DNA of 64,000 nt from a virus, in the IMG/VR virus record IMGVR_UViG_3300022555_000010, positions 87,774-151,773 of that record. The stretch is one strand, 5' to 3'. A model generated the notes under the pieces. The model made no database searches. It worked only from the letters and a program-made list of their open reading frames with translations, and had not been told where the DNA came from. Position numbers and translations under genes: made by a program. Below are positions 8,901-24,467 of the stretch, piece after piece (position 1 is the stretch's first letter; each line of letters starts with the position of its first letter).

Positions 8901-9581
8901 GAGATCTCCAGGATTCGTGAGGAGGCTGGACAGGCTCCCAAAGTGGAAATCAAGAAGGAAGAGAAGCCGGCCGTGATTCGATGCAAGGTGACAGTTATCA
9001 CTCCGACTTATAAGCGTGATCCGGCTGTGATTCGTCGGTGTCTGGGAAGCATGTTGATGCAGACGGAGACAGATTGGGAGCAATTCGTGTGTTCTGACGG
9101 TGCCTTGGAAGAACCCGCTCGTGATCTTGTAAATAAGATTGGAGATCCACGGATTCGGTATTTTTACACGGAAGGCAAGAAGGAAGGGGACTACGGGAAC
9201 ACGGTCAGATCGGAGATGATGAAGTATGCCAGGGGGAAATATGTCCTATTCCTTGATGACGACAACCTGATTCTTCCTCATTACCTGGCGACGATGGTAT
9301 CAAAGATGGAGAATTCCCCGGACTGTCAATTCGCAGTTTGCCAGATTATGCATTTTGGTCCATTGAATGAACAGGAAGAGGGGAAGGCTCCAAAAGTGTT
9401 GCTTGGGGACCCGGTAAAGTTGTATCATATTGATCCATTGCAGGTTCTGGTCCACCGGGATATAATGCAAAAGGTTGGTTGGGACACAAAAGTTGGGTAT
9501 TTATCTGATGGAGTGTCATTAGAACGATTAGCGTCCTACAAGCTCGTTCGGGTGAATGAGGTATTGGGGATTCATATGTAA
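5973..9581 (+). CDS. multidomain glycosyltransferase (GT4 plus several GT2 domains), 1202 aa
   Basis: SGG..; EGFGMPPAEAMACG (GT4); VPVYNE...EADE (GT2); FDNGS; ITPTYKR...CSDG...YVLFLDDDN (GT2). Confidence 0.85.
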   Translation: MKVVFVNTVDSDQPSGGAKQAYRHIDVLNQLGIDSCFAHPTPGFRYTWFDNNTPTIHTDDVELTADDFMIFGELVHEVPRVKGWDRCGKVVLCQNDYNALGGFKLDLANTRQTYREAAAILCPSENAVSNIQFIFPSARVMRFKYSFDRAPLEFSAEKESLVAVMPRKRGHEIDAVLAVIGIRWVPPGWNLLRLDNMSEKDVARALKRCAAFLSLGEKEGFGMPPAEAMACGCITVGYTGYGGNEFMLPGISFPVPDGDFIGLSRELMRIFKMPQEERLEIAHKASTFIRATYSTKDEVESIKEAWGKITRPVIDLRSDARSRMRKEVAAYVPVYNEGPYLENILKWLIPRVGEIFVAESIIPWSPNAKAGGESKAIVDKVLAECPESKNVIRYMRVGDQEDKDDPLLREAKQRNSILEKIREYGFKFVWMVEADEFYRDNEAEEMWSWFFDRVTEGARTANCHWHTYWRSIHWRIDPPENFRPNVAFLSDCKFRHGRILEAKDEQMSVEVPDRVCMIRHYSWARTPADVKNKLAAWGHSKELDPDWYEKKFMAWKPGDDMFNVHPTNPESYKMIVRCDLPLPEAMKGHPFIDMEIIEDKNKEVFVMPEVKESVKVRTNRIKVVIMHHNKPENADKLWEQLSPVFDDVEIFDNGSDPGKVPIHTTRSRENVYWTGTWNEVMATCHEYDAVWVIGCDIELMYQPEDYRTAIESSLPFGCWSPCIDGRAHDFMQEKHYGDKHPEEVKNIEGMALAMSGSLMRQIGELVPGSKIGFGQDFWMCYRSRKAGMRNIIDGRVSVHHPEGIGYNEAEAHRQMEETFGRAYGPDFRTTIFEYDQRFEKNIIGETKMPEGKRFTIVTVDNGWGLSEFIRVTSKFPDIRRIVMRKGVIDNIQMPGIEFVEYNEDLKGLVDQADIALFPRVGVANKDDYQKLLKAGVATVVRESCSQGMIEHMKTGWFFRDELWAEHWLAFLMNNPKEISRIREEAGQAPKVEIKKEEKPAVIRCKVTVITPTYKRDPAVIRRCLGSMLMQTETDWEQFVCSDGALEEPARDLVNKIGDPRIRYFYTEGKKEGDYGNTVRSEMMKYARGKYVLFLDDDNLILPHYLATMVSKMENSPDCQFAVCQIMHFGPLNEQEEGKAPKVLLGDPVKLYHIDPLQVLVHRDIMQKVGWDTKVGYLSDGVSLERLASYKLVRVNEVLGIHM

Positions 9582-9594
9582 TACTGGAGGTCTT

Positions 9595-9837
9595 ATGGCA
9601 AAGAAAGAGAAGAAGAGAGTTGTCAATGGACGATTGATCCGAGTCTTCGAGTCCAAGAGACCTAAGTTTACGCATGTGTCGAAGGAATGGGACGCAGTTC
9701 AGGTTGAGGATGTGAATGGACACAATAGTCGTTGTCTGTTGTTTACGGCCGGTGAGATTGCGGAAGCACAAAAGAGGGCTGCGAACAATGTTGAGGAGTT
9801 GACGAAGGAAGGTTTCATAATAGAGATTCTTGAATGA
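9595..9837 (+). CDS. hypothetical protein
   Basis: GGAGG RBS before ATG. Confidence 0.6.
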   Translation: MAKKEKKRVVNGRLIRVFESKRPKFTHVSKEWDAVQVEDVNGHNSRCLLFTAGEIAEAQKRAANNVEELTKEGFIIEILE

Positions 9838-9859
9838 TAGACCTGCATAATTTCTTGTT

Positions 9860-9892
9860 GTGCCAGGTCTGCGAACCTGGCACTTTTGTTTT
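9860..9892 (+). terminator. intrinsic terminator
   Basis: GTGCCAGGT/ACCTGGCAC stem plus TTTTGTTTT. Confidence 0.75.
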
Positions 9893-9893
9893 C

Positions 9894-9922
9894 GGGCCTT
9901 TAGCTCAGATGGTCAGAGCAGG
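9894..9922 (+). pseudogene. 5' fragment of a tRNA (Ile2/Met-CAT-like)
   Basis: GGGCCTT TAGCTCAGATGGTCAGAGC AG: acceptor strand plus D arm, then unrelated AT-rich sequence. Confidence 0.7.
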
Positions 9923-9971
9923 AAATTAAATTATACTTGAGGTCGCTCTTACCAATTGATATGCTGTAAGG

Positions 9972-10457
9972 ATGAAAAGAAATGATGCTTTGTTACCGTA
10001 TGACAATTATTGGATTTACAATCCAGTTGTAAGTGTGTCTTCAGGAAGAAGAGTTTGTGTTTTAGTTTCAAAGAAGGATGGATGTAAGACAAGTATTAGC
10101 TATGCTCGATATTTGATGTCAGTCGCTATCGGAAGAATATTGGATTCAAAAGAGTTTGTAGATCATAAAGATGAAGACAAGTTGAATGATGACATCTTGA
10201 ATTTACAAATATTGTCTCGTGGTGATAATAATCGAAAATATAGAATATGTGCTGGGATAAAGCCTGTTAGATTTAAATTTCGATGTCCCAGTTGTAAGTG
10301 TGTGTTCGAGAAAGATAAAAGACAGTCTCATCTTTCAAAAGGAGGAGTTTTTACGGCATGTTCAAGATCTTGTGCTGGAAAAATTCGGGCAATGATGGGT
10401 CATGGATTTTTTATTGATGTCTCAGGAAATGTAATAGGGGAAATCAAGGACCCGTAG
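9972..10457 (+). CDS. HNH homing endonuclease with C-terminal Zn finger
   Basis: VDHKDEDKLNDDILNLQILSRGDNN; CPSC...CSRSC; TAG stop lies inside the downstream tRNA. Confidence 0.8.
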   Translation: MKRNDALLPYDNYWIYNPVVSVSSGRRVCVLVSKKDGCKTSISYARYLMSVAIGRILDSKEFVDHKDEDKLNDDILNLQILSRGDNNRKYRICAGIKPVRFKFRCPSCKCVFEKDKRQSHLSKGGVFTACSRSCAGKIRAMMGHGFFIDVSGNVIGEIKDP

Positions 10458-10524
10458 CTTAATTGGTCAAAGCAGTTCTCTCATAAGGAATTGAGTCTCA
10501 GTTCGAGTCTGGGCGGGTCCACCA
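10448..10524 (+). tRNA. tRNA with CAT anticodon (probably Ile2)
   Basis: GGACCCG/CGGGTCC acceptor, CT-CAT-AA loop, TTCGAGT, ACCA; resembles bacterial tRNA-Ile2. Confidence 0.85.
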
Positions 10525-10569
10525 ATATGAAAAAAAGAAGAGACGGATAAGACTTGTCCTATTTGCAGG

Positions 10570-10968
10570 ATGATTCTTGGATTCAAACCCGGTCGCGGGG
10601 ACAGATGCCAGGAATGTAAAAACACGGTAGGTGTTGAAGATGCTTATGCCTGGTATAAGATGGAACGTCAGATGGAACTACAGTCGAAGGCTTATGTCTA
10701 CTTGTTTCCAGCATTGATGATTGTGGCGATGTTTGAAAGAATCTATGTTTACAAAGGTGGATACACCTTGAGGTCATTCTTGATTTACGACCTTGTTCCC
10801 TGGGGATTGTGGGTATTCAATGTATTCTTCTTATGGCCTGGGAAAGGGGTAAGTATCCCAGGGATGAAGGATAGATTAAAGAGGGCAAAGGATGATTTGT
10901 TTTTGAAGAAGTTGGGTGGCGAGCCAGTTCGTAAAAAAGGTGATTACGATGGGTTCGGGGAGTTGTGA
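10570..10968 (+). CDS. membrane protein with N-terminal Cys motif (true start possibly 10527 across an A7 run)
   Basis: Two hydrophobic segments; the upstream in-frame sequence encodes CPIC, pairing with CQEC. Confidence 0.55.
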   Translation: MILGFKPGRGDRCQECKNTVGVEDAYAWYKMERQMELQSKAYVYLFPALMIVAMFERIYVYKGGYTLRSFLIYDLVPWGLWVFNVFFLWPGKGVSIPGMKDRLKRAKDDLFLKKLGGEPVRKKGDYDGFGEL

Positions 10969-11000
10969 TACAGAAGGCATTTCAGGCGTTTTTGTATGGT

Positions 11001-11053
11001 AATAAAAATAGTTAAAAGATTTGTTGCATCGCGATTCGCGAATAGCGTATAGT
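11001..11053 (+). promoter_or_regulatory. sigma70-like promoter of the tRNA operon
   Basis: AT-rich UP region 11001-11020, TTGCAT 11024-11029, TATAGT 11048-11053; predicted +1 about 11060. Confidence 0.65.
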
Positions 11054-11059
11054 GAACGC

Positions 11060-11134
11060 ATGAAGACATCGTTGTCATATCTCTATCTGGTGAGTTGCTT
11101 ATTTAATAGCAACTTCCGTAGGGGTATGTCCTGA
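11060..11134 (+). CDS. leader peptide MKTSLSYLYLVSCLFNSNFRRGMS (24 aa, not in ORF track)
   Basis: ATG at predicted +1; 3' end overlaps the antiterminator strand; codons match downstream tRNAs. Confidence 0.75.
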   Translation: MKTSLSYLYLVSCLFNSNFRRGMS

Positions 11135-11200
11135 TCTGACTTCATAAAACAGGATGTAGACAAGCCCCACGGAGAGATCCGGAGGGGCTTTTGTGTTTTT
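11093..11200 (+). promoter_or_regulatory. transcription attenuator (pause hairpin / antiterminator / terminator)
   Basis: AGTTGCT/AGCAACT hairpin 11093-11114; TTCCGT(A)GGGGT 11114-11125 pairs with GCCCCACGGAG 11164-11174; ATGTCCTG/CAGGATGT nested inside; mutually exclusive terminator 11162-11200. Confidence 0.75.
11162..11200 (+). terminator. conditional intrinsic terminator
   Basis: AAGCCCC-A-CGGA-gaga-TCCG-GA-GGGGCTT followed by TTGTGTTTTT. Confidence 0.8.
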
Positions 11201-11277
11201 GGGATTTGGGTTTGTCGTGACAGAATGTCGTGAGAAGTGTCGCGAGATGATATTCGCGAATAGAGAATGAATAGATT

Positions 11278-11354
11278 GGTGGGGTAGCTCAGTCTGGTAG
11301 AGCGTCGGCCTGAAGAGCCGAGCGTCGGGGGTTCAATTCCCTCCCTCACCACCA
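11278..11354 (+). tRNA. tRNA-Phe(GAA)
   Basis: Full cloverleaf, TCGGC-CTGAAGA-GCCGA, CCA end. Confidence 0.95.
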
Positions 11355-11368
11355 AAGTTGAATAGATT

Positions 11369-11454
11369 GCTCGAATGGTGGAATGGCAGACACGTAGCCC
11401 TCAGAAGGCTATGGCCGTAAGGTTGTGGAGGTTCAAGTCCTCTTTCGAGCACCA
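11369..11454 (+). tRNA. tRNA-Leu(CAG)
   Basis: TAGCC-CTCAGAA-GGCTA, long variable arm, CCA. Confidence 0.95.
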
Positions 11455-11533
11455 GTGGATAGGGTGGAATTCCCTCGTGGGTCCGAATCCCACTCCGAGC
11501 AATCGGATGGCTGAGTGGTTTAAGGCAATCCAC
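11455..11533 (+). ncRNA. circularly permuted tRNA-like RNA (compact, YrlA-like module)
   Basis: Order: GTGGAT, variable arm, T arm GTGGG-TCCGAAT-CCCAC, acceptor TCCGA-GCAA-TCGGA closed by a tetraloop, D arm TGGCTGAGTGGTTTAAGGC, ATCCAC. Confidence 0.7.
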
Positions 11534-11539
11534 AGTTTT

Positions 11540-11576
11540 GGAAGGATGGCAGAGTGGTCTAATGCGGCGGTCTTGA
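11540..11576 (+). pseudogene. 5' half of interrupted tRNA-Ser(TGA)
   Basis: GGAAGGA TGGCAGAGTGGTCTAATGC GGCGGT CTTGA, then breaks. Confidence 0.85.
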
Positions 11577-11644
11577 TTATTGCAATTAAAAGTTGATAAT
11601 TCAACTCTTGTAGAGAGTAGTCAATACTATAAGGGAGAATTATT

Positions 11645-12106
11645 ATGCCAAGCAGGCTGTATTCGAGGGAAGTTCTTGAGCCGGTTGTTATAAATAGCAG
11701 ATCTTTTCGAGATTTGACGATAAGGCTGGGTAAGAAACCACATGGAGGGTTGATAAATCATATAAAAAAGATTGTTGTTGGATTGGGAATAGATTGTTCG
11801 CATTTCAATCGTGGGGCTTGGAATAAGGGAGTGGTTTGGACTGGAAGAAGATCGGCTGAGGAAATTTTTTCGGGAGGAAAGATAGAGCCTGCCTATCGGT
11901 TGAAGAGGGCGTTATTAGAGATAGGTCGTGAGTGGAGTTGCGAGGTTTGTGGAATTAAAGATTGGATGGGGAAAGAAATAGACTTTGAGATTCATCATAT
12001 TGATGGGGACAAAAAGAATAATACAATTGTAAATTTGAGGATTGTTTGTCCTAATTGTCATTCTCAGAGTGGAAATTCAAGATTCAAGGGAAGGAAACAT
12101 GGCTGA
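11645..12106 (+). CDS. HNH endonuclease
   Basis: CEVC...EIHHIDGDKKNNTIVNLRIVCPNCHS; TGA stop inside downstream tRNA. Confidence 0.9.
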   Translation: MPSRLYSREVLEPVVINSRSFRDLTIRLGKKPHGGLINHIKKIVVGLGIDCSHFNRGAWNKGVVWTGRRSAEEIFSGGKIEPAYRLKRALLEIGREWSCEVCGIKDWMGKEIDFEIHHIDGDKKNNTIVNLRIVCPNCHSQSGNSRFKGRKHG

Positions 12107-12181
12107 GTGGTCTAAGGCGGGTGTTTTGAAAACATCAGATGTTAATAGCATCCGTAGGTTCAAATCCTACTGTTTCCGCCA
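12093..12181 (+). tRNA. tRNA-Ser(TGA)
   Basis: GGAAACA/TGTTTCC, GGTGT-TTTGAAA-ACATC, long arm, GCCA. Confidence 0.92.
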
Positions 12182-12182
12182 G

Positions 12183-12237
12183 TTGAAAACCGGAGTACCG
12201 AGAGGTATCGGGGGTTCAAATCCCTCTCCTTCCGCCA
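12183..12237 (+). pseudogene. 3' half of interrupted tRNA-Ser(TGA)
   Basis: TTGAAAACCGG, variable arm, GGGGG-TTCAAAT-CCCTC, TCCTTCC-GCCA, which pairs perfectly with GGAAGGA at 11540. Confidence 0.85.
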
Positions 12238-12239
12238 GT

Positions 12240-12332
12240 TTTTCGAGGATCTTTTCGAGGCATTTAACTCGTTGAGATTCAAATGTTTGTGAGAATTTTC
12301 AGTCAAGATTTCGAGGATCTTTTCGAGGATCT
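12240..12332 (+). repeat. four copies of TTTCGAGG(ATC), in two tandem pairs
   Basis: Copies at about 12241, 12253, 12309 and 12321. Confidence 0.7.
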
Positions 12333-12438
12333 GATTGAAGACCTTATCCCTGGTGGATATTGTAATGGCAAATTGACAACTGAATAGTGAATAGCAAGGC
12401 GGCTGATCCGGGTTCTTGTACCGGGTCAGTCGTTGTAT

Positions 12439-12515
12439 GGGCGATTAGCTCAATTGGTCAGAGCGTCTGGTTTACACCCAGAAGGTTATCGGTTCGACCC
12501 CGGTATTGCCCACCA
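12439..12515 (+). tRNA. tRNA-Val(TAC)
   Basis: TCTGG-TTTACAC-CCAGA, CCA. Confidence 0.92.
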
Positions 12516-12525
12516 TTTTTTTTAT

Positions 12526-12564
12526 TTCCGTATTCTGGGGAAGTTATGGCAATGTGTAGGTATG
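12526..12564 (+). promoter_or_regulatory. bipartite phage promoter motif, copy 4
   Basis: TTCCGTATT-N14-GCAATG-TGTAGGT-ATG. Confidence 0.75.
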
Positions 12565-12843
12565 AACTACTACGATGAAATGAATAAAGTGCCGGAACAT
12601 CTCAAGGGGATTGCTGATGTCGTTAAGACACACACCCATCGAGATGTAAATGAGAAAGAGGCGTCCGAGATTGCCTTCGCACTCTTAGAGCTTGAAGGGA
12701 ATAAAGTCATAATCAAAAAGATTGCGGATTACATTCAGAGTCAGAATCAGCAGTTGCGATGGGCTTACGAGAGACACAACAAGTTCGCCGATGATGTTTT
12801 TCAATGGGTTCGCTGGGCGGCTAATTGGACATTGAGGAAATAA
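12562..12843 (+). CDS. hypothetical protein
   Basis: Starts at the motif ATG; the longer track start overlaps tRNA-Val. Confidence 0.65.
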   Translation: MNYYDEMNKVPEHLKGIADVVKTHTHRDVNEKEASEIAFALLELEGNKVIIKKIADYIQSQNQQLRWAYERHNKFADDVFQWVRWAANWTLRK

Positions 12844-12852
12844 GGGAAATAT

Positions 12853-13299
12853 ATGGCACACAAACGCAAAGACACTTTGACGAAGTCTCCGGACTGGTGG
12901 AGACATCTTCGGCCTTTCAACAAACGGAAGGTGGCCAAGGCGGAACGTCGTGCAGCCAGGGCGGAAATCACGGAAGAGGACTATGAGGATGCCAAGGGGC
13001 TTGGTCTTCACAAAGAGCCATCGAAGATGAGATGGTTGAGGGAGACGGATGGGGATTCGATTATTCCCCAGGGTTGTTACTGTTACGATCAGAAGGGAAT
13101 TTGTCCTTACTGGGACAAGGCGGAGAATAAACAGGAACAGAATAACGGGTATTGCTGGTTTCAGATGAGCGGGGATTGGGACGAGAAGGGCTGTGATCTT
13201 CTTTGGGATCAGTGTAAAAACTGCGGGAAGAACGATGTTGATGTTCCCGAGGGTATAATACAGGTGATAGCAGAGAAAGATGAGGAACCAAAATGTTAG
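12853..13299 (+). CDS. hypothetical Cys-rich protein
   Basis: ORF with CYCY, CPYW and CKNC. Confidence 0.6.
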   Translation: MAHKRKDTLTKSPDWWRHLRPFNKRKVAKAERRAARAEITEEDYEDAKGLGLHKEPSKMRWLRETDGDSIIPQGCYCYDQKGICPYWDKAENKQEQNNGYCWFQMSGDWDEKGCDLLWDQCKNCGKNDVDVPEGIIQVIAEKDEEPKC

Positions 13300-13568
13300 A
13301 AGTTGATTTAAGGAATGCTTTTGAGCCGGGGAGTAATGCTGACAATTTCTCGGTGTTGTTGCTTCGGTTGATTGCCAAGGCAGACGGGGACAACAAACTG
13401 AAGTTAAGTTTGGGTTATCCTGTTCATGTGAAGGCAGTTTGGATTTATCAGAATCAGTGTCCGTATCGGGATATGAATCGGAGTGTGGTTGACTGGGCGG
13501 CAATCGCAACCCAGGCTTCCGAAGGAAAGGATTGTGATGAATGTCAAAATCATTTGGAGAGGCTTTAA
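13293..13568 (+). CDS. hypothetical protein
   Basis: GAGG RBS; LIAKADGDNKLKL..GYP. Confidence 0.6.
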   Translation: MLEVDLRNAFEPGSNADNFSVLLLRLIAKADGDNKLKLSLGYPVHVKAVWIYQNQCPYRDMNRSVVDWAAIATQASEGKDCDECQNHLERL

Positions 13569-13894
13569 GCCAGGGCATCCCGATAGTGTTGCTTCGTAAG
13601 GGTGATTGTCCGGAGGTTATTGGTGAGCCGGGGAAGGAACCAGAGGCTTTGGATACTTTGGATAAGATGAAGATAGTGAAGTTGACACGACCCCAGGATG
13701 GTCGAAAACCGAAGGGTGCGATACAGAATTTCTCCGAGAAGCCGGTTCTGACAGATGAGGAACTTCTGGAAGAGTATGGTTGGGAGATGGAATGCTTGAG
13801 TCCGTTTGAGTTGAGGCATAAGGATGGGTCATTCTTATGCGGGAATCAGGCGAAAGATCTATTGAGGCAGTATCGAGAGGATGAGAAGAAATGA
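13541..13894 (+). CDS. hypothetical protein
   Basis: Overlapping ORF in operon. Confidence 0.5.
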   Translation: MSKSFGEALSQGIPIVLLRKGDCPEVIGEPGKEPEALDTLDKMKIVKLTRPQDGRKPKGAIQNFSEKPVLTDEELLEEYGWEMECLSPFELRHKDGSFLCGNQAKDLLRQYREDEKK

Positions 13895-13896
13895 TT

Positions 13897-13932
13897 CCCC
13901 GCATGGTGAAATTGGCAGACACAACGGACTTA
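13897..13932 (+). pseudogene. 5' half of tRNA-Leu (TAR anticodon, probably TAA)
   Basis: CCCCGCA TGGTGAAATTGGCAGACAC A ACGGA CTTA, then breaks. Confidence 0.8.
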
Positions 13933-13992
13933 CAATGCAGTGATGTCTTAATTATTATTTTATAATTCTTATCATAGTAGGGAGATACTACT

Positions 13993-14553
13993 ATGAAAAA
14001 GACTGATAATGAGATACGTGAGGCGGTTGTTGGATCTATTACGTATGCCGGGATTTTGATTAAATTAGGTCTTGTCCCAATGGGGGGAAATTACAAGACA
14101 ATAAAGAGAAGAATACGAATTCTTGGTATTTCGACAGAACATCTTAAGGGGAAGTCATGGAATCGGGGAGGAGTTGGAAAACGAAGTTATGCGAAGAAGT
14201 CCTTGGAGAGTGTAATGATAGAAGATTCTTCGTATTCGACTTTTAAACTCAAGAAGAGATTGTTCAGAGAGGGAATTTTTAAGAAAAAATGCAACAAGTG
14301 TGGAGGAGAACAGTGGCTGGGAAAGCCAATGCCATTAGAATTAGAACATAAAAATGGGAATAGTCACGATCACAGGATAGAGAATTTAGAGATACTTTGT
14401 CCCAACTGTCATTCTTTTACGGATACATATCGAGGTCGGAAGTCTCGTGGGAAAAAGATTATGAAGGAAGAACGACGATGTTCTAACTGTAATGGTCGGG
14501 TGTCGTTAGGGTCGAAATCTGGATTGTGCTATTTATGTTCTCCAAAGTTTTGA
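13993..14553 (+). CDS. HNH endonuclease (paralog of 11645-12106)
   Basis: CNKC...LELEHKNGNSHDHRIENLEILCPNCHS; C-terminal CxxC..CxxC. Confidence 0.9.
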   Translation: MKKTDNEIREAVVGSITYAGILIKLGLVPMGGNYKTIKRRIRILGISTEHLKGKSWNRGGVGKRSYAKKSLESVMIEDSSYSTFKLKKRLFREGIFKKKCNKCGGEQWLGKPMPLELEHKNGNSHDHRIENLEILCPNCHSFTDTYRGRKSRGKKIMKEERRCSNCNGRVSLGSKSGLCYLCSPKF

Positions 14554-14557
14554 AAAT

Positions 14558-14634
14558 GCCGGAGTGGTCCAATTGGCAGAGGCAACAGTTTTAAAAATTG
14601 TGTGTTGCGGGTTCGACTCCCGCCTTCGGCACCA
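14558..14634 (+). tRNA. tRNA with TAA anticodon (Leu) and short variable loop
   Basis: GCCGGAG/CTTCGGC, ACAGT-TTTAAAA-ATTGT, 5-nt variable region, ACCA; 77 nt. Confidence 0.85.
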
Positions 14635-14764
14635 AGGAGAAACAAGATGACGGACGAGGAGATCGGACGGAGGTTGTTGAATATTGACGCCATTGCATAT
14701 TCTCAATGGAGTTATTTGACAAGAACTTTGGGATGTATTGTGGTTGATGACGAAAGAGACTTTT

Positions 14765-15223
14765 ATGAAATTCAAGATACCGTGTGAGTGGACGGTGAGG
14801 ACGGTCGAGGTGATCGAAGCCAAAAATTTGGTAGATGCACAAGATAAGGCTTTCAAGTTGACTCGACCAAAGACATTGGAAGGCTGCAAGATTGAAGATC
14901 CTATTGGTGGGGGTCTGGATTGGAAGACATTCAACAAGATGTATCCACCAAAGCCTCCGGCTGATCCGATGGAGGGTTGGACAAGGACAACTGATCCTGG
15001 GCCGTATCAGGGCGGGCAATGGGTGAAGGAGGCGAATGGGTGTGAGGTATTTGTCACCGGGGATACTGGGCCGATAGAGGTCGGGATGGGAATGACAACC
15101 TATTCGTGGAGTGTGTCGAAGCCTGGTCGTAATGACACTCTAACCTCGAAGAAGGATTTCGATAGGATTGAAGAAGCTCGTGATGCGGCATTGAAGGCAT
15201 CGGAACGATGGAGTAAGATGTGA
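14765..15223 (+). CDS. hypothetical protein
   Basis: ORF in operon. Confidence 0.55.
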   Translation: MKFKIPCEWTVRTVEVIEAKNLVDAQDKAFKLTRPKTLEGCKIEDPIGGGLDWKTFNKMYPPKPPADPMEGWTRTTDPGPYQGGQWVKEANGCEVFVTGDTGPIEVGMGMTTYSWSVSKPGRNDTLTSKKDFDRIEEARDAALKASERWSKM

Positions 15224-15396
15224 AGCCTGAAGTGATTAAGGGGATCAGGAAGCAGTCTGGGATGACTCAGACGGAGTTTGCAAAGGCGATGAGAGTATCA
15301 TTCGCGACTGTAAACAGATGGGAGAAAGGACATTTTGTTCCACTCCCGGACAGACTGGATCGTTTGAAAGAGTTTAAACAAGGAATCGTGAAATGA
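15220..15396 (+). CDS. XRE-family helix-turn-helix regulator (58 aa, not in ORF track)
   Basis: IKGIRKQSGMTQTEFAKAMRVSFATVNRWEKG; GTGA and ATGA coupling to neighbours. Confidence 0.85.
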   Translation: MKPEVIKGIRKQSGMTQTEFAKAMRVSFATVNRWEKGHFVPLPDRLDRLKEFKQGIVK

Positions 15397-15764
15397 AAAA
15401 CAGGTTTGCGGAGATCGCGGAGAGAGTGGCGGCTAAGTATCAAGACATTGGTCATCAGCCTGGAGATAGACTCTGGTGGGTTGGCAATGATGGTAAGGTC
15501 AAGACCTTGGTGTCAACTGGTAAGGAGTTCCACCACGATATTGACGAGAATATCGATATGGATGCTCGGTGGCGTGGCCGTTTGGAAAAGGGTGGTATGT
15601 GTACTCTGTTACCACCGGTGCATCTGTATGCGAAGTTCAAGGATGTGGAGGATATGCCTCTCCCGGATTCAGCGATGACGAAGTTGGAGAAACTGGGAGC
15701 GAAGCACTTCTATCTGGATACTCAGCGGGGTATGAATCGGATCAGTAAGACGGTTGTCCGGTGA
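15393..15764 (+). CDS. hypothetical protein
   Basis: ATGA-coupled; N-terminal RFAEIAERVAA. Confidence 0.6.
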   Translation: MKNRFAEIAERVAAKYQDIGHQPGDRLWWVGNDGKVKTLVSTGKEFHHDIDENIDMDARWRGRLEKGGMCTLLPPVHLYAKFKDVEDMPLPDSAMTKLEKLGAKHFYLDTQRGMNRISKTVVR

Positions 15765-15776
15765 ACTGGAGATTTT

Positions 15777-15812
15777 GGAAGAATGCCGTAACTGGTAGCG
15801 GGTCTGATTCGA
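15777..15812 (+). pseudogene. 5' half of tRNA-Ser(CGA)
   Basis: GGAAGAA TG CCGT AACTGGTA GCGG G TCTGA TTCGA, then AT-rich sequence. Confidence 0.8.
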
Positions 15813-15857
15813 TTGTAATAATTGTTTGATATTTGCACCTAAAGTGGAGGTGCGAAT

Positions 15858-16706
15858 ATGAATAAGTGCAGATTTTGTGGAAAAGGCGGATTTGAAAAGC
15901 GGGGACTTCGAGAACACGAGAAGTATTGTCGGATAGTTCATCGTTATGTTGATATTGCGAAGGAAGAACTGGAAACAGGATTGTTGCTATGTGAGACGGG
16001 ATGTGGTCTGCCAGCCAGATTTACATTGAAAGTTGGAAAGGTTTGTTGTTCTGAGTTTGTTCAGTCTTGCCCGGAGACAAAACGAAAAAACAGCCTTTCA
16101 AAGAGTGGTGAGCATAATCCAAGAGGCATGTTGGGTAAAAAGACCGGAAGACTCGGAAGGAAGAATGTGGATGTCTTTGGTGTTGTCGTGGCAGGTCGAA
16201 TAAGTAAAAAGATTTCCAATAGGTTGACTGGTAAAGTTACAGGGATGGCATCAACAGTTGGAAATGAGATTGAGAGAGTTCGTAAGATTTCTGATGCGGC
16301 AAAAAAGAATACTTACGGAAATTATGGAGGATACAAGAGGGGAGCAGGAAGAGGGAGACACGGATGGTATAAAGGTATCTGGTTTGACTCTTCCTGGGAA
16401 TTAGCGTGGATCATATTCAATATTGATCACGGGATTCAGTTTGAGAGAAATAGTGATAGGTTTGAATATCAATGGGATGGAAAGACTCATAAGTATCTTC
16501 CAGACTTCAAAATGGCTGATGGGAAGTATGTAGAAGTTAAATCGTGGTTGAATGACAAGGTGGTTGCAAAATTAAAGGCGTGTCCAGGAGTTCTTGTTTT
16601 AATGAAGAAGGAGATGGAGCCGTTTATTCAGTATGCAATTAGAAAATATGGTAAAGACTTTGTTAAGGATTTTGAGATTAAAAGGAAGAATGTCCGAACT
16701 GGATAA
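15858..16706 (+). CDS. PD-(D/E)XK endonuclease (TnsA-N-like) with Zn-finger N-terminus
   Basis: DSSWELAW...YLPDF...YVEVKSW; CRFC..H..C; TAA stop inside downstream tRNA. Confidence 0.8.
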   Translation: MNKCRFCGKGGFEKRGLREHEKYCRIVHRYVDIAKEELETGLLLCETGCGLPARFTLKVGKVCCSEFVQSCPETKRKNSLSKSGEHNPRGMLGKKTGRLGRKNVDVFGVVVAGRISKKISNRLTGKVTGMASTVGNEIERVRKISDAAKKNTYGNYGGYKRGAGRGRHGWYKGIWFDSSWELAWIIFNIDHGIQFERNSDRFEYQWDGKTHKYLPDFKMADGKYVEVKSWLNDKVVAKLKACPGVLVLMKKEMEPFIQYAIRKYGKDFVKDFEIKRKNVRTG

Positions 16707-16771
16707 GGAGTCTGCCTCGAAAGCAGATGTACCGAAAGGTATTGGGGGTTCGAGTCCCTCTTCTTCCGCCA
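16684..16771 (+). tRNA. tRNA-Ser(CGA)
   Basis: TCTGC-CTCGAAA-GCAGA, long arm, GCCA. Confidence 0.92.
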
Positions 16772-16974
16772 CACCGAGTGAGATTGTTTATATCAGTAAG
16801 GGAGTTTTGTTGAAGGAGATGGCGGATCTGGGCATCAATATCAACAGTGTTACGGCTGATGGGATAGTGAGTTCGGCAAAGATGGTGATTGTTGATGGGA
16901 TTGTGGTGAAGAATCGGGATGGTAAGACCGGGGCGAATGTCTCGGGAACGATAGTGGTCGATGATGAGAAAGAT

Positions 16975-17049
16975 TGGCGAGTAGCTCAATGGTAGAGTAT
17001 CCGGCTGTTAACCGGGTTGTTGGAGGTTCAAGTCCTCTCTCGCCAGCCA
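16975..17049 (+). tRNA. tRNA-Asn(GTT)
   Basis: TCCGG-CTGTTAA-CCGGG, GCCA. Confidence 0.92.
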
Positions 17050-17055
17050 AATATT

Positions 17056-17379
17056 ATGAAACAAGAACTGATAGATCTATGGCAGCAGATGGCCGATCTG
17101 ACAAAGGAAAAGTGTCAGAAGTCCTGTAGGAATATGGGAGCATGTTGCAGTGGAGAATACTGTGAACTCGCCGCCGAGACGATGGAGAAGGCCGGTGAGA
17201 AGGTTCCCCCGATGCCTTTCGTAGTGGACGGGAAGTGTTCTATTCCTCCTCATTACAGGCCGATATGTGCATTACATCAGTGTGATATTGGCAGTCTTGG
17301 GTTTATGAAGGGGGACCCGGACTTGACAAAGAGATATTTTGATTTGAGATTCAAGTTGGAAGACTTGGCAGAATTTTAA
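17056..17379 (+). CDS. Cys-rich hypothetical protein
   Basis: CQKSC..GACC..YC...C...RPICALH. Confidence 0.6.
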   Translation: MKQELIDLWQQMADLTKEKCQKSCRNMGACCSGEYCELAAETMEKAGEKVPPMPFVVDGKCSIPPHYRPICALHQCDIGSLGFMKGDPDLTKRYFDLRFKLEDLAEF

Positions 17380-17542
17380 TTCCGATAGTACCTTCAGCAA
17401 TGGGATACTTCTAAAAAAACAGGTGCCCGAAAGGGCGTGAAGGTTCGAGTCCTTCCTCTGTGGCTAATAACTGCGGAGTGGTGGAATTGGCAGACACGCC
17501 TGCAAAAAAAGACCCATTGTGATTTTCGGTATTGTAGGAATT
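17378..17542 (+). ncRNA. YrlA/Y-RNA-like ncRNA: long bulged terminal stem plus permuted tRNA-Leu-like module
   Basis: AATTCCGATAGTACC/GGTATTGTAGGAATT and TCA(G)CAATGGG/CCCATTGTGA stems; A7 linkers; module 17420-17502 runs variable arm, T arm, loop-closed acceptor, D arm. Confidence 0.75.
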
Positions 17543-17546
17543 TTAT

Positions 17547-17582
17547 TTCCGTATTGAGACAAGACATCTGCAATGTATGTGC
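17547..17582 (+). promoter_or_regulatory. bipartite phage promoter motif, copy 5
   Basis: TTCCGTATT-N14-GCAATGTATG; here followed by an AGGAG RBS rather than an immediate ATG. Confidence 0.7.
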
Positions 17583-17598
17583 ATTAGGAGATGAGATT

Positions 17599-17817
17599 AT
17601 GTTGGGACTTAAAAAGAGGGCTGAGGATCGTAAACTGGAAAATGATCTATACTTATCTCGTCGTGGGTATGATTACGCGGCCGGGAGATTGTTACGAGGT
17701 GGGAATGTCAAGAATCTCTATGAGGAGGCGGCGAGATGTGATGATCATAGAGAGCCTTTTACGATTGGGGTTTGTGATGCAGTCAGGGACTGGGAGAAGA
17801 AAGGGAAAGTGGGATGA
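17599..17817 (+). CDS. small hypothetical protein, paralog of 19711-19926
   Basis: MLGLKKRAE...RRGYD..AG.LLRG...A(V/I)RDW shared with 19711. Confidence 0.65.
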   Translation: MLGLKKRAEDRKLENDLYLSRRGYDYAAGRLLRGGNVKNLYEEAARCDDHREPFTIGVCDAVRDWEKKGKVG

Positions 17818-18563
17818 AAGTGTTTTTAACGAGTGGGGGAACAAAGACCCCGATAGACAGTGTCAGGCACGTAGGGAATATGTCAAAGGGGACATTTGGT
17901 TGTCATCTCTGTAATGCCTTTTTGAAAATGGGGCATACGGTTCACTATTTTTACGCCAAGGACAGTAAGGCACCTCACGATTTCAGGCTGAATCTCAAAG
18001 AGGTTGGTTCGAGAGAAGCGATGGAGACATTATTGGAGAGCTATGATTTCCTCGATGATTTTGGGGATCGATACATACCAATGGAATATTCTGATTTCAA
18101 CTCCTATGCAGAAGGTCTGAAAAAGATGCTTGGTTCTGGTTTGTTTGATTTGCCGGATGTTGTGGTTTTAGCGGCGGCAGTAAGTGATTATGCCCCGGTA
18201 AAGCACGAAGGCAAGATCAGTTCGGATCTGGATAAGATGGTCATCGAGTTCGAGAAGACTCCGAAGTTGATCAGGCAGATTCGGGATTTCTGTCCGAAAA
18301 CATTCCTGGTGGGGTTCAAGTTGCTTGTTGGAAGCACCCAGGACGAGTTGCTGGAGGCGATGAAGAAGCAGATGAAAGTTGCGAAGACGGATATGGTTGT
18401 CGGGAATGACCTGAGGGATATCCGGGCGGACAAACATTCGTTGACTATTTTGAGGGCAGACGGGGGAATCTCCGGGTTCTCTGGGATGTCGGGTGATAAA
18501 TTGGCGGAATATCTTGTGGGATCTATTGATATCTTACAGGGAAGAAAGAAACGGTTGGCATGA
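17814..18563 (+). CDS. coaB: phosphopantothenate--cysteine ligase
   Basis: TSGGTKTPIDSVRHVGNMSKGTFG, AAAVSDY, KISS, LVGFKLL, VVGND. Confidence 0.9.
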   Translation: MKVFLTSGGTKTPIDSVRHVGNMSKGTFGCHLCNAFLKMGHTVHYFYAKDSKAPHDFRLNLKEVGSREAMETLLESYDFLDDFGDRYIPMEYSDFNSYAEGLKKMLGSGLFDLPDVVVLAAAVSDYAPVKHEGKISSDLDKMVIEFEKTPKLIRQIRDFCPKTFLVGFKLLVGSTQDELLEAMKKQMKVAKTDMVVGNDLRDIRADKHSLTILRADGGISGFSGMSGDKLAEYLVGSIDILQGRKKRLA

Positions 18564-19708
18564 ATATTTTACTTGGATTGACAGGAAGTGTGGCGACAAA
18601 GATTGCCCCGAAGATCATTGAGGCTTTGGAGGCGATTCCGAATTGTTCTGAGGTCAGGGTGATAATGACTGACAAGGCGGCAATGTTTTACAACCCGGAG
18701 GCATTGGCCAGGGTTTCAGGGGTCAAGGTCTACACGGAGGGAGACGAGTGGACCTGGCGGAAGGAAATCAAGGCGATCGGTCATGCTACGGTTCAATGTC
18801 TTGCAACAGACAAATGGGAAAAGGGACTACCCATTCAGCATATTGAGTTGGTGAAGTGGGCTTCTTGTCTGGTGATTGCTCCGGCGACGGCGAACACGAT
18901 TGGGAAGATGGCCAATGGGCTGTGTGACAATCTGCTGACTTCGGTGTTTACGGCCTGGGATCGGAATCGGCCGGTGATTATGGCACCGGCGATGAACACC
19001 ATGATGTTACATTCGCCTGCGGTAGTTCATAATATGGAGACGTTGCAGAAGATGGGTGTTCTGATGGTGCCGACAGTCAAGAAGGAATTGGCTTGTGGGG
19101 ACACAGGAGATGGGGCCTTGGCAGATGCCTCGGATATTGCTCGGGTGGCCGCCAGGGAGATTCAGTGGCTATTTCCGTTCAATCTGGTGTCACCGATCAG
19201 GGGAATCCCGGTTGGGAGTCACCCAGGAGCCTTTGGAGCAATGAGGAAGCATGACAGACATTGTGGAGTGGACTTGTATTGCAACAATGGGACGCCGGTT
19301 GTTTTGGTTGAAGATGGCCGGGTGGTAAGCATTGAACCATTCACCGGGAAAGATGCTGGATGTCCTTGGTGGCTGGATACGAAGGTTGTGAAGGTGGAAG
19401 GGGCCAGTGGGGTCGTTTGTTACGGAGAGATTGAGCCTCGGGACTATGTTCAGGTTGGAAAGGTGTATCGGAAGGGGTGTCAGATTGGGAATGTGATCCC
19501 GGTGTTGAAGCCGGAGAAGCATCGTCCGGATATCCCTGGGCATTCGTGTTGTATGCTTCATCTTCAGATGTTCAGTCACGGGACATATAATCTGAAGGAT
19601 GAGTTCAACAGTCACGAAGAATTGCCGGACTATATCATTGATCCGACACCGTATCTGTTGGGGGCGGTTGGGGCAAAGGATATTAAGAAGTTGGATGTGA
19701 AGGTGTAA
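18560..19708 (+). CDS. coaC: phosphopantothenoylcysteine decarboxylase fused to an M23-peptidase-like domain
   Basis: LTGSVA, HIEL, PATANTIGKMANGLCDNL, PAMN, LACGDTGDG; C-terminal HCGVDL..GTPV..DGRV...LHLQ. Confidence 0.85.
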   Translation: MNILLGLTGSVATKIAPKIIEALEAIPNCSEVRVIMTDKAAMFYNPEALARVSGVKVYTEGDEWTWRKEIKAIGHATVQCLATDKWEKGLPIQHIELVKWASCLVIAPATANTIGKMANGLCDNLLTSVFTAWDRNRPVIMAPAMNTMMLHSPAVVHNMETLQKMGVLMVPTVKKELACGDTGDGALADASDIARVAAREIQWLFPFNLVSPIRGIPVGSHPGAFGAMRKHDRHCGVDLYCNNGTPVVLVEDGRVVSIEPFTGKDAGCPWWLDTKVVKVEGASGVVCYGEIEPRDYVQVGKVYRKGCQIGNVIPVLKPEKHRPDIPGHSCCMLHLQMFSHGTYNLKDEFNSHEELPDYIIDPTPYLLGAVGAKDIKKLDVKV

Positions 19709-19710
19709 CA

Positions 19711-19926
19711 ATGTTTGGATTTAAGAAAAGAGCCGAGGCAAAGAGGCACGAAGAGAACCCGAGTCCTAGGAGGAGAGGATATGATTCTATCGCAGGGGGA
19801 ATATTGAGGGGTTGGAATATTGATTCACACATTGATAATTTTATGTTGGAGGGACCGGGAAGTGTTGAGGATGGCGAGGAAGAGGCGATAAGGGATTGGA
19901 TGAAAATGAGAGGATTTAAACAATGA
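19711..19926 (+). CDS. small hypothetical protein, paralog of 17599-17817
   Basis: MFGFKKRAE...RRGYDSIAGGILRG...AIRDW. Confidence 0.65.
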   Translation: MFGFKKRAEAKRHEENPSPRRRGYDSIAGGILRGWNIDSHIDNFMLEGPGSVEDGEEEAIRDWMKMRGFKQ

Positions 19927-20055
19927 GAAAGTCTACAGCGAGTCCAAAGAGTACGAAGATCAAGAATGGTTGCACTCGGACGAAGAGGAGTTCAGGGTGT
20001 GTCGGGTCGGCAATTGCTCGGACTCGTGAACGAAGGAAGTGTCGGTAAGTATTTT

Positions 20056-20087
20056 GACGGGTTAGCCAAGTGGTTAGGCAGGTCTTG
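20056..20087 (+). pseudogene. 5' fragment of a tRNA (Cys-like)
   Basis: GACGGGT TAGCCAAGTGGTTAGGC AGGTCTTG resembles the 5' half of bacterial tRNA-Cys. Confidence 0.65.
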
Positions 20088-20142
20088 AAAAAGCATTGAC
20101 TTGACAGGCCAGTAATAGCATTATTCAGGGAATGGAGGTGCT

Positions 20143-20856
20143 ATGAAAAAGAACGAAGAAATTAAAATCAAGGCAAGAGATTTGAGGTCGCTCGGATTAT
20201 CTGTTGGAGATATTTCAAAAAAACTTTCAGTCTCTTATGGCTCAGTTGGTAACTGGGTTCGTGACATTATTCTGGACGAAGAACAGAAGAAGAATATCTC
20301 AAATATTCGTCAAAAGGAAGTTCAGCGTGTTTTCGATCTTCCCTTAGAGATTTTTGATAAAATGATTGAAGACGGCTTAAGCCAGAAAATGATTGCTGAT
20401 AAATTGGGAGTATCTTTGGGAATAATGAGTCGAGTGTTCAAATCGAAGGGGCTATCAGGAAGAACGCCTAAAGGTCAGAGACCCGTATTTGGTTTGAGCG
20501 ATTGTAAGATTTGTGGAGTTCCCAGAAAAACATGGCGAGGAGGAACTTGTCCTACTTGTGTGTCGAAAATTAGACGTTTAAAAACGAAGATTAGGGCAGT
20601 AAAGGAGTTGGGTGGGAAATGTAAAAGTTGTTCGTGGGAACCAACAAGTCGTGAGGTTGCGGCGATGGAATTCCATCATAAAGGTGGAGATAAAAAAGAA
20701 TTTGAGATAGGTAAGAAGATGAATCATAAGTGGGAAACTTTACTTCCAGAAATCAGGAAGTGTAAATTGTTGTGTTCTCGATGTCACAGGATTGAGCACA
20801 GTCGAGTAGATCCATTGTTTGATTTTATATTTGATCAAGATGATAAGATGCGATGA
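20143..20856 (+). CDS. HTH + HNH-like endonuclease
   Basis: Two HTH segments; CKIC..CPTC; CKSC...MEFHH...KCKLLCSRCHRIEH; TGA stop inside downstream tRNA. Confidence 0.8.
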   Translation: MKKNEEIKIKARDLRSLGLSVGDISKKLSVSYGSVGNWVRDIILDEEQKKNISNIRQKEVQRVFDLPLEIFDKMIEDGLSQKMIADKLGVSLGIMSRVFKSKGLSGRTPKGQRPVFGLSDCKICGVPRKTWRGGTCPTCVSKIRRLKTKIRAVKELGGKCKSCSWEPTSREVAAMEFHHKGGDKKEFEIGKKMNHKWETLLPEIRKCKLLCSRCHRIEHSRVDPLFDFIFDQDDKMR

Positions 20857-20920
20857 CCGAGAGGTTAGGTGGTTCTCTGCAAAAGAACATAGGCTGGTTC
20901 GAGTCCAGTTCGCATCTCCA
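20847..20920 (+). tRNA. tRNA-Cys(GCA)
   Basis: GTTCT-CTGCAAA-AGAAC, U73 discriminator, CCA. Confidence 0.92.
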
Positions 20921-20929
20921 AAATTTTTC

Positions 20930-21016
20930 GGGGAGTTAGCCAAGCGGCAACGGCGGCAGACTGTAAATCTGTTTCTCTAACGAGGTTCAAAGGTTCGAGT
21001 CCTTTACTCCCCACCA
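20930..21016 (+). tRNA. tRNA-Tyr(GTA)
   Basis: GCAGA-CTGTAAA-TCTGT, long arm, ACCA. Confidence 0.95.
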
Positions 21017-21054
21017 ATTATTAGTGATCAGTAATATATCGGTGAACAGTAATA

Positions 21055-21300
21055 ATGAGCAGAAGGATCAGATACACCAAGCAGAGAGCCTTATTGGGAT
21101 CTTTGATTACAAGGGATGGTCTAAAATGTCACTGGTGTCATAGGGAATGTGACCCGAAGGCTAATAATGGAAGTCCTGGATATCCGACCGTGGAGCATCT
21201 GAAGAGGCAATGTGAGGGTGGAACGGATGACCCGGTGAATCTGGTGGTGGCTTGTTTGAAGTGTAATAGTGGGAGACATTTGCCTGGGTGGACTCCGTGA
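21055..21300 (+). CDS. small HNH endonuclease
   Basis: RDGLKCHWC...TVEHL...GGTDDPVNLVVACLKCNSGR. Confidence 0.85.
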   Translation: MSRRIRYTKQRALLGSLITRDGLKCHWCHRECDPKANNGSPGYPTVEHLKRQCEGGTDDPVNLVVACLKCNSGRHLPGWTP

Positions 21301-21520
21301 TTGATGGAGTGGTCAATGGATTGATTCAGGAAGCGTCCTACCCGGATTGCAGTTATTGGCAGTTGCATATTTGTGGATGTGGGCAGGCTTCGGTTCGGCA
21401 TCTTGTTGAGGGAGATCACAAGGGCTGGATCATGGGATGTAATTGTCGGACCGGGCTGGATTTGTTGGGATGGTTGCCGATAGGAGTTGTCCCGGCAGTG
21501 GATGAGGTAGATGAGTCGTT

Positions 21521-21610
21521 GGAAGGATGGCAGAGTGGTAATGCAGCGGTTTGCTAAACCGTACAAGGTGTAAAAGTCTTGCGTGAGTTCAAGTCTCACT
21601 CCTTCCGCCA
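21521..21610 (+). tRNA. tRNA-Ser(GCT)
   Basis: GCGGT-TTGCTAA-ACCGT, long arm, GCCA. Confidence 0.95.
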
Positions 21611-21772
21611 AAATGTGTTTGGGGTGGAACCCTGATATAACGGTCCGTGATGCTGAAAGCTGAAGCGGGTAGCTGTTGATTGCTTCCAAAGCGACACAGA
21701 AAGTCGGTTGACTGTAGTGCGAGGTCAGCCTTTTAAATAGGCAGTAAAAACCTGCATCGGACGCCAATTATC

Positions 21773-21811
21773 TTCCGTATTCTGTGGTACAATCTGCAAT
21801 GTCTTTATATG
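21773..21811 (+). promoter_or_regulatory. bipartite phage promoter motif, copy 6
   Basis: TTCCGTATT-N14-GCAATG-N7-ATG. Confidence 0.7.
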
Positions 21812-21979
21812 AAACTCCCAAACTACTTCTTAGATGATTGCTGTAAGAAGAAGCCGGGAGTCGAGTGGGATGGTGGGGAGATCACGGCTAAGTGCCGCAA
21901 GTGTGGGGACTTGGTCACAAATCGAGAGATGTGGAAATTGATGATTGCCTGGAATAAGAAAAAAAGAGGGTTGAAATGA
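21809..21979 (+). CDS. small Zn-finger protein (56 aa, not in ORF track; loosely Lar-like)
   Basis: CC...CRKCG...AWN; starts at the motif ATG, ATGA-coupled to next gene. Confidence 0.55.
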   Translation: MKLPNYFLDDCCKKKPGVEWDGGEITAKCRKCGDLVTNREMWKLMIAWNKKKRGLK

Positions 21980-22344
21980 AGGACCAATCGGACTGGATAT
22001 CGTTGATGAATGACAATGCTTTCATCTCTCTTGCAGATGTTAAGAAATGGTTGAATATTGGAACGGCCTGGCAAATGAGGAGATTGGTTGAGTATCAGTC
22101 GTTTCCGATGCCGGCATATGGGACTTCTCAAACGGCCAGGATGTCTCGGGGATGTCGGTGGAGAGTCGGAGATATCAGGGAATGGTTGAAGACGGGTAAA
22201 TGTGTGAATGGTTGTGCTGAGATGTCAGAAAGACTTACGACCAGGATTGCGTCGGCTGAACGCAGAAGGTTGAACGGGAATCGGATTGCGAAGATTTACA
22301 GGGATTTGGATAGTAAGGGGTTAAAGCTTGGCGATAGGCCTTAA
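21976..22344 (+). CDS. AlpA/excisionase-like HTH protein
   Basis: ISLADVKKWLNI...FPMP...RWRVGDIREWL. Confidence 0.6.
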   Translation: MKDQSDWISLMNDNAFISLADVKKWLNIGTAWQMRRLVEYQSFPMPAYGTSQTARMSRGCRWRVGDIREWLKTGKCVNGCAEMSERLTTRIASAERRRLNGNRIAKIYRDLDSKGLKLGDRP

Positions 22345-22354
22345 GGGATAATTT

Positions 22355-22549
22355 ATGAAAGCGTATGGAGTTCCTCGGATTTGTGATGCTGAGTATTGTG
22401 ACAAGGCGGATATCAAGAAGTACGGCAGGGCGACCGTGGATCGGTGTTCTCGGGCGGACAGGGGTAAGAACACGGCTCGTCGTATCTGGGCTAAAAAGGC
22501 TCGTCGTGATGGTAAAAAGGAAACGATTCTTTCCGTATCGGCAGCCTAA
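22355..22549 (+). CDS. small basic hypothetical protein
   Basis: 64-aa Arg/Lys-rich ORF. Confidence 0.5.
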   Translation: MKAYGVPRICDAEYCDKADIKKYGRATVDRCSRADRGKNTARRIWAKKARRDGKKETILSVSAA

Positions 22550-23246: not shown

Positions 23247-23285
23247 ACAATCTCGGGGATGTTCCGGGAGTGTATAATGTGACTT

Positions 23286-24453: not shown

Positions 24454-24467
24454 TTATGAGATAATTT

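Follow-up and report, generated by a model that had tools for sequence, protein, structure and literature searches.

The window, i.e. the whole stretch of 64 kb that was analysed, is the final part of a single virus contig (151,773 bp, 46% G+C). All of the tRNA genes of the contig (16/16) are located in the window between 10.4 and 25.9 kb. In this cluster, one tRNA-Ser gene (A) is present as two halves, separated by an insert that contains an HNH endonuclease gene and a second, intact tRNA-Ser gene with the same anticodon (B). The features of the locus are the following:

11474..11539, plus strand: older tRNA debris upstream of A, composed of a Leu-like 3' end (T arm and TCCGAGCA) and a B-like tRNA-Ser 5' fragment
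11540..11576, plus strand: 5' half of the broken resident tRNA-Ser(UGA) A, positions 1-36 through the anticodon TGA (37 nt, beginning with GGAAGGA and the D arm and ending in GGTCTTGA)
11573..11576, plus strand: left copy of TTGA (U33 and anticodon), repeated at 12183-12186
11577..11644, plus strand: AT-rich cassette spacer of 68 nt, with a ribosome-binding site GGGAG (11633-11637) 7 nt ahead of the ATG
11645..12106, plus strand: HNH endonuclease gene, 153 aa (PF01844, 2e-6; phrog_10822, 2e-37)
12093..12181, plus strand: intact carried tRNA-Ser(UGA) B (ARAGORN; Rfam tRNA, 55.5 bits)
12182..12186, plus strand: one G (12182) followed by the right copy of TTGA (12183-12186), read from the sequence
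12187..12237, plus strand: 3' half of tRNA A, position 37 to CCA (51 nt: AAACCGG, long variable arm, T arm, TCCTTCC-G-CCA)

When the 610 bp of the insert (11577-12186) are removed, 11540-11576 and 12187-12237 form a sequence of 88 nt that is called as tRNA-Ser(tga) by ARAGORN. In the cloverleaf of joined A, the acceptor, D, anticodon and T arms are paired and the variable arm is long; the acceptor stem has 7/7 Watson-Crick pairs and the single G-G mismatch is found atop the anticodon stem. This full Ser(TGA) cloverleaf, with its 7-bp acceptor stem and its one G-G, had been proposed in the initial annotation and is borne out by the ARAGORN call, which is a tRNA-Ser(tga) instead of a non-tRNA. 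With the position set by the T arm, 7/7 Watson-Crick pairs would arise by chance with p ~6e-5; for a 4-nt repeat at a fixed junction, p is ~1/256. Provided that the acceptor, D and T arms are present, ARAGORN tolerates a wide choice of junction offsets, so its call on joined A shows that the halves belong together and not where exactly the gene was broken; the exact break point is ambiguous within TTGA. With long introns allowed, ARAGORN mostly returned chimeras of neighbouring intact tRNAs. A cassette-free allele of A would read GGTCTTGAAAACCGGAGTACC across the break site.

The coordinates also agree with the content that had been attributed to the insert, i.e. a spacer, the HNH gene, a different intact tRNA-Ser(TGA) and one G, with TTGA at both junctions (11573-11576 and 12183-12186). 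The element carries a whole tRNA, as was claimed, its boundaries are set to within the four nucleotides of TTGA, and the same layout was found in three further phage contigs. No more than 68 nt of the insert lie outside both the ORF and the tRNA, and this spacer (11577-11644) displays only weak sigma-70-like matches (six in the region versus 2.7 in shuffles). The segment 11577-12186 is almost certainly a unit of HNH gene and tRNA that was inserted into tRNA-Ser(UGA) A. The TTGA repeat may be a target-site duplication or microhomology, the sequence being compatible with both, and the other three examples have no consistent 4-nt repeat. Upstream of A, the B-like fragment of the debris (11505-11526) is 95% identical to positions 7-26 of B.

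tRNA genes are repeats that can mislead assemblers, and many foreign tRNA-Ser contigs match part of the 11540-12237 region. The split could on this account be a chimera made of reads from two wrongly joined tRNA-Ser genes, an explanation whose probability is nevertheless close to nil. Contigs of 1.0-1.4 kb cross both junctions with 0 differences in three runs of two other studies (X2 record 4, 11289-12335; X5 record 20, 11229-12239; X4 records 10 and 12), and a 99% identical HNH protein is recorded from other contigs. Since identical junction-spanning contigs were obtained in other studies, the split is not considered an assembly artefact. In one contig of run X2, 12242-12437 is swapped for 30 other letters, which may point to variation of these positions within the population or in a relative. 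In the same spacer, between the 3' half of A and tRNA-Val (12238-12438), TTCGAGGATCTTTTCGAGG occurs twice as a direct repeat, near 12243 and near 12311.

An empty site was searched for in several collections. The empty-site junction, the 3' half of A and the 29-mer of its 5' half each had 0 exact matches in IMG/VR. The contigs of four runs contained no exact empty-site joint, and the joints and loose ends at 11576 in these contigs are those of tRNA-Ser genes of other organisms. The flanking proteins have no relative in IMG/VR, hence no syntenic locus for inspection, and INPHARED holds no close relative of the window stretch.

The HNH ORF matches Pfam PF01844 with 28.2 bits (threshold 21.4, E 2e-6). 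Residues C99, C102, H118, N130, C135, C138 and H139 are invariant among its closest relatives (alignment A3), with both CxxC pairs and the H-N-H residues kept, and from its sequence the gene looks intact. It is free-standing, i.e. it has its own ribosome-binding site and is located outside any detectable intron. Relatives from other samples have 99% (P0001) and 69% (P0002) identity, the contig of the latter being absent from IMG/VR, and the matches listed in a metagenome scan for further relatives were filled by distant ones, with a best identity of 44%. Comparison of the protein sequence with solved structures revealed no useful similarity. The ORF and tRNA B share 14 nt, the end of the one being the start of the other. 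tRNA sequence codes for part of the conserved C-terminus GRKHG, because the ORF often ends inside the 5' end of the next tRNA; such ends are very common among the relatives, typically by 10 nt.

tRNA B scores 55.5 bits with the Rfam tRNA model RF00005 (gathering threshold 29) and is called Ser(tga) by ARAGORN, with the discriminator G73 and an encoded CCA. It is 72-73% identical to A, from which its anticodon stem differs (GGTGT/ACATC), and 62-69% identical to the other tRNA-Ser of the phage. A SegB-like tandem amplification was rejected as the origin of the pair, A and B being only 72-73% identical. tRNA A is 75% identical to the tRNA-Ser(CGA) and tRNA-Ser(GCT) of the phage, and its 3' half is 88% identical to the 3' half of the former.

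Opitutales/Opitutia MAGs (Verrucomicrobiota; loci L159-L248) have a chromosomal tRNA-Ser(UGA) to which the first 37 nt of the 5' half of A, and the first 43 nt of joined A, are identical. Over the whole gene, A and the Opitutales tRNA-Ser(UGA) agree at 78/85 positions; the T arm and acceptor are one base off and the rest of the differences are located at position 43 and in the variable arm. A 29-nt stretch of the 5' half was found exactly in the genomes of more than 120 bacterial species and in 0 IMG/VR contigs. The A-type anticodon arm (up to 2 mismatches) is present in 35 of the 151 genomes of the Opitutales class and the B-type arm in 2/151. Because the A-type arm is the commoner of the two in this class and the first 43 nt are host-identical, A is regarded as a host-like resident and B as an unusual incomer. 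The host-identical 5' half of A gives a host clue for this uncultured freshwater phage: a host among the Verrucomicrobiota, Opitutales, is possible from these identities, the anticodon arm alone being common to several phyla.

A single change would turn the G27-G43 mismatch of A into GCGGT/ACCGC or CCGGT/ACCGG, both natural bacterial variants. The mismatch could be a weak hint that the halves come from two alleles. A single point mutation would be the simpler explanation given the perfect acceptor stem of joined A.

Since both halves of A are nearly undamaged, the split gene could still be in use, its halves being transcribed and then joined through RNA repair enzymes or a ribozyme that escaped detection, and relatives of the HNH protein do occupy self-splicing introns in tRNA anticodon loops. 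Rfam searches were negative for a group I intron, both over 9000-27000 (E<=1) and over 11500-12280 (E<=10), while Intron_gpI was detected with the same search in three loci of relatives, used as positive controls: L050 (28 bits, E 4.5e-5, the match stopping precisely at the 3' exon), L009 (61 bits) and L006. Group I introns are preceded by a U at the 5' splice site and have G as their last base. Among the five junction choices within TTGA, none offers both. A group I intron in A was rejected on the grounds of these two results and of the 68 nt beyond ORF and tRNA, and the claim of an HNH and tRNA unit in tRNA-Ser(TGA) that is not an intron stands. Continued use of split A is very improbable for the same reasons: a group I core is missing even at E<=10, just 68 nt of the insert are neither ORF nor tRNA, no TTGA junction gives U and terminal G, and the isoacceptor with the same anticodon within the insert makes A redundant. 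The context is that of a tailed phage of a bacterium, with a host-like tRNA A of Verrucomicrobiota type. An integrase-type element was also rejected, as the insert codes only for the HNH protein and a tRNA, the repeat is 4 nt long and the tRNA is not rebuilt.

Four more units with a tRNA 5' fragment to or near the anticodon loop, a spacer, an endonuclease gene and an intact tRNA are found in the same tRNA cluster, and their endonucleases belong to different families:

9894-10524: fragment at 9894, HNH gene 9972-10457 (phrog_14913), tRNA-Met
13897-14634: Leu fragment ending in CTTA (break 13905), second phrog_10822 HNH gene, tRNA-Leu(TAA)
15777-16771: Ser fragment ending in TTCGA (break 15812), non-HNH endonuclease gene, tRNA-Ser(CGA)
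20056-20920: fragment at 20056, HTH and phrog_2255 HNH protein, tRNA-Cys

The anticodon of the fragment fits the carried tRNA in the units at 13897 (Leu) and 15777 (Ser). A recognisable 3' half was found at none of the four. Their missing 3' halves would fit a repair of the right end through homology in the 3' half of the tRNA, the left join alone being non-homologous. The split of tRNA A is plausibly the most recent of the five events in the window, since it is the sole one with both halves and has one stem mismatch only. At 17425-17505, two orphan tRNA pieces stand in succession with no endonuclease gene between them: the 3' end of a long-arm tRNA (variable arm, T arm, CTCTGTG), then a 5' fragment resembling tRNA-Leu.

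The HNH family phrog_10822 was compared across 113 loci with relatives of 30-55% identity (33 IMG/VR contigs and 80 metagenome contigs), of which 103 hold tRNA genes. Among 116 non-identical HNH copies with downstream sequence, 66 are followed by an intact tRNA on the same strand that starts between -40 and +60 nt from the stop codon. The tRNA overlaps the end of the HNH ORF in 38 of those 66, most commonly by 10 nt. Two cultured phages have this arrangement: in the Felix O1-like phage mistaenkt, a tRNA-Leu starts one base past the HNH stop codon, and in the Gordonia phage GodonK a tRNA-Glu overlaps the ORF end by 10 nt. In a metagenome contig (L098, 1623-2051), a match to GOLLD RNA (147.6 bits, slightly below the gathering score of 150) encloses a tRNA and has tRNA genes and an HNH relative as neighbours.

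Orphan tRNA 5' fragments were defined by BLAST against 558 tRNA halves, which replaced a 5'-half heuristic with a 50% background. They are located within 170 nt upstream of 19/109 HNH copies versus 2.4 expected, an enrichment of about 8-fold. A search for split tRNAs by acceptor pairing alone found four versus 2.7 in mismatched controls, which is not significant by itself. Most members of the family have a 5' fragment only or none. The layout with both halves, in which a split tRNA surrounds the HNH gene and an intact tRNA, was found in three other contigs:

L037: 5' half GCCCAGA to CTGCAA, HNH gene, intact tRNA-Cys(gca), 3' half ending in TCTGGGC; split tRNA-Cys(GCA)
L053: 5' half beginning with GCGACCG, HNH gene, intact tRNA-Leu(tag), 3' half from CTTAGAATCCGG to CGGTCGC; joined form called tRNA-Leu(tag)
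L011: both halves of a long-arm tRNA around the HNH gene and a tRNA-Tyr; broken anticodon unreadable

The carried anticodon is the broken anticodon in the window, in L037 (Cys-GCA) and in L053 (Leu-TAG). The junctions of L037 and L053 have no matching 4-nt repeat. In L053 (1582-1595, 2194-2212), the 5' piece is directly followed by TCCGGT, the 3' strand of the anticodon stem of the 3' piece. The left copy looks as though it had lost the loop, and the history of this junction would be more complex than a simple insertion.

Six relatives are of the intron type (L006, L009, L045, L049, L050, L059): their tRNA-Leu(UAA) is split after U34 (GACTT at the 5' exon end) and the HNH ORF is followed by a group I core. 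Occupied and empty sites are both available for an intron-borne relative, as the tRNA halves of L050 are 97-100% identical to the uninterrupted tRNA-Leu of L073. A maximum-likelihood tree was built quickly from 85 HNH proteins and is weakly resolved; in it, the five copies borne by introns group together as a single clade (SH-aLRT 99) within the free-standing copies. The four cases with both halves, including that of the window, fall at four different places of this tree, which indicates that the scar with both halves is a recurrent outcome and not one inherited oddity.

The insert of 610 bp is probably an intron-less homing cassette, made of an HNH gene fused to a spare tRNA-Ser(UGA), that spreads by cutting and replacing its target; cleavage and mobility are here inferred. 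The cassette would have entered the anticodon loop of the resident host-like tRNA-Ser(UGA) A. In cassette-free genomes, the HNH protein would cut the DNA of A-type anticodon arms near TTGA; the duplication of TTGA would agree with a cut staggered by 4 nt over positions 33-36, or with microhomology. Repair would copy the cassette in, and the halves of A would then serve as homology arms for later homing. Homologous homing itself makes no target-site duplications, so TTGA would need a separate founding event, i.e. end joining or microhomology. The spare tRNA B would escape cutting and replace the lost function, making the insertion costless to the phage. Around the break, B differs from A at 3/13 positions on the left and 7/13 on the right. 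An immunity of B is not obvious from these sequences, since A and B have the 8-nt core TTGAAAAC in common. The spare gene would do for the cassette what self-splicing does for an intron-borne endonuclease.

The fusion itself may contribute to regulation. As the last 14 nt of the ORF are the 5' end of tRNA B, maturation of B by RNase P would remove the stop codon of the HNH message and probably keep the nuclease low, as was proposed for T4 segB. Likely hosts have the identical arm in their chromosomal tRNA-Ser(UGA) gene, so this gene, or competing phages, might be cut by the HNH protein as well.

The split might instead be a one-off scar of illegitimate recombination, without any role in the spread of the gene. 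An ordinary free-standing HNH gene beside B would target another site, e.g. a T-arm motif as does SegB, or a flanking site, and repair at the TTGA microhomology would have dropped the HNH gene and B into A. The shortness of TTGA and the TTGAAAAC core common to A and B agree with such an accident, as does the outcome of the exact IMG/VR scans, which found no empty site. Many relatives, including that of the cultured mistaenkt, have an adjacent tRNA but no tRNA fragments, and SegB cuts many tRNA genes loosely and drives rearrangements of tRNA clusters (PMC2330249; PMC13096335). A scar without function is nonetheless unlikely. The break is located in the anticodon loop in every readable case, i.e. 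11576, 13905 and 15812 in the window and the breaks of L037, L053 and L110, and relatives occupy group I introns at U34/A35 of tRNA-Leu. Broken and carried tRNAs have the same anticodon where readable, and the approximately 8-fold enrichment of orphan 5' fragments just upstream of the HNH gene also argues against a single accident.

A homing cassette remains the preferred reading of the insert, and a broader one would make the whole arrangement a natural 'cleave and rescue' selfish element. The resident tRNA gene would be destroyed by the HNH nuclease at its anticodon loop, and its place would be taken by a resistant isoacceptor fused to the nuclease ORF. Such elements would be an alternative to splicing in the same enzyme family, would be widespread in phages and would overwrite host-like phage tRNAs with variant anticodon arms. 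We consider this generalisation evenly balanced. Against the cassette reading, co-conversion beside a tRNA without insertion is also common in the family, since most relatives carry a 5' fragment only or none. L011 was likewise counted against it, as its broken anticodon is unreadable and its carried tRNA is a tRNA-Tyr.

If the predicted cutting is true, these cassettes would rewrite the tRNA sets of phages, from host-like tRNAs to tRNAs with altered anticodon arms, which would bear on phage escape from host nucleases that cut tRNA anticodon loops. The locus would also be a small natural model of a cleave-and-rescue gene drive and a source of nucleases against conserved tRNA gene sequences.

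Several known systems can be compared with the locus. [quoted passage not shown] Like SegB and the F-Tfl enzymes, the window locus has a nuclease gene among phage tRNA genes, and its product would cut inside tRNA genes and spread with the neighbouring tRNAs; as in these systems, the ORF is in contact with a tRNA, whose processing may limit expression. The GIY-YIG enzyme SegB of T4/T6, whose recognition site is the T-psi-C region, brings about co-conversion and amplification (PMC2330249; PMC13096335), and tRNA processing was proposed to limit the expression of T4 segB (PMC2330249). In contrast to the window locus, whose target is left as two halves, SegB replaces the recipient region by co-conversion and leaves no split gene. 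The systems also differ in their targets, T-psi-C for SegB and presumably the anticodon loop in the window, in their nuclease families, GIY-YIG versus HNH phrog_10822, and in the spare tRNA with the same anticodon that is included in the inserted unit of the window.

The classical position of group I introns in tRNA-Leu(UAA) is U34/A35. The tRNA group I introns with HNH ORFs have the same HNH family and the same kind of target site as the window locus. Unlike them, the insert of the window has no ribozyme core, and function would be rescued by a spare gene and not by splicing.

HNH genes in the tRNA arrays of mycobacteriophages were reportedly described by Pope et al. in 2014. They are the commonest protein genes inside the tRNA arrays of mycobacteriophages and bacteria and were proposed to reshape tRNA repertoires (PMC5966550, PMC6409571, PMC8421152). 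Unlike in the window, these reports describe an association only, without an anticodon-split tRNA and a carried isoacceptor. A full-text literature search found no description of an anticodon-split tRNA gene with an endonuclease that carries a replacement isoacceptor.

The nrdA gene of Aeh1 is said to be split by mobE (Friedrich et al. in 2007). Genes in pieces that arise through the insertion of homing endonucleases are also known as 'fractured genes' with split inteins (PMC2677866). As in the window, a free-standing endonuclease gene stands between the two halves of the target gene. Their halves function, as subunits or through trans-splicing, whereas the halves in the window are probably dead and a whole spare is supplied. 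[quoted passage not shown] The window locus differs from both in being a natural element of 610 bp with an HNH nuclease and a complete tRNA.

Homing endonucleases normally spare their carrier in two ways, either by hiding in a self-splicing intron or intein or by sitting beside their target. The window locus displays a third way, to break the gene and bring a spare, and since neither half of the victim gene has been lost, this way is completely visible. Free-standing homing endonucleases of tRNA clusters are known; the window locus adds to them the disruption of the target together with a carried spare tRNA.
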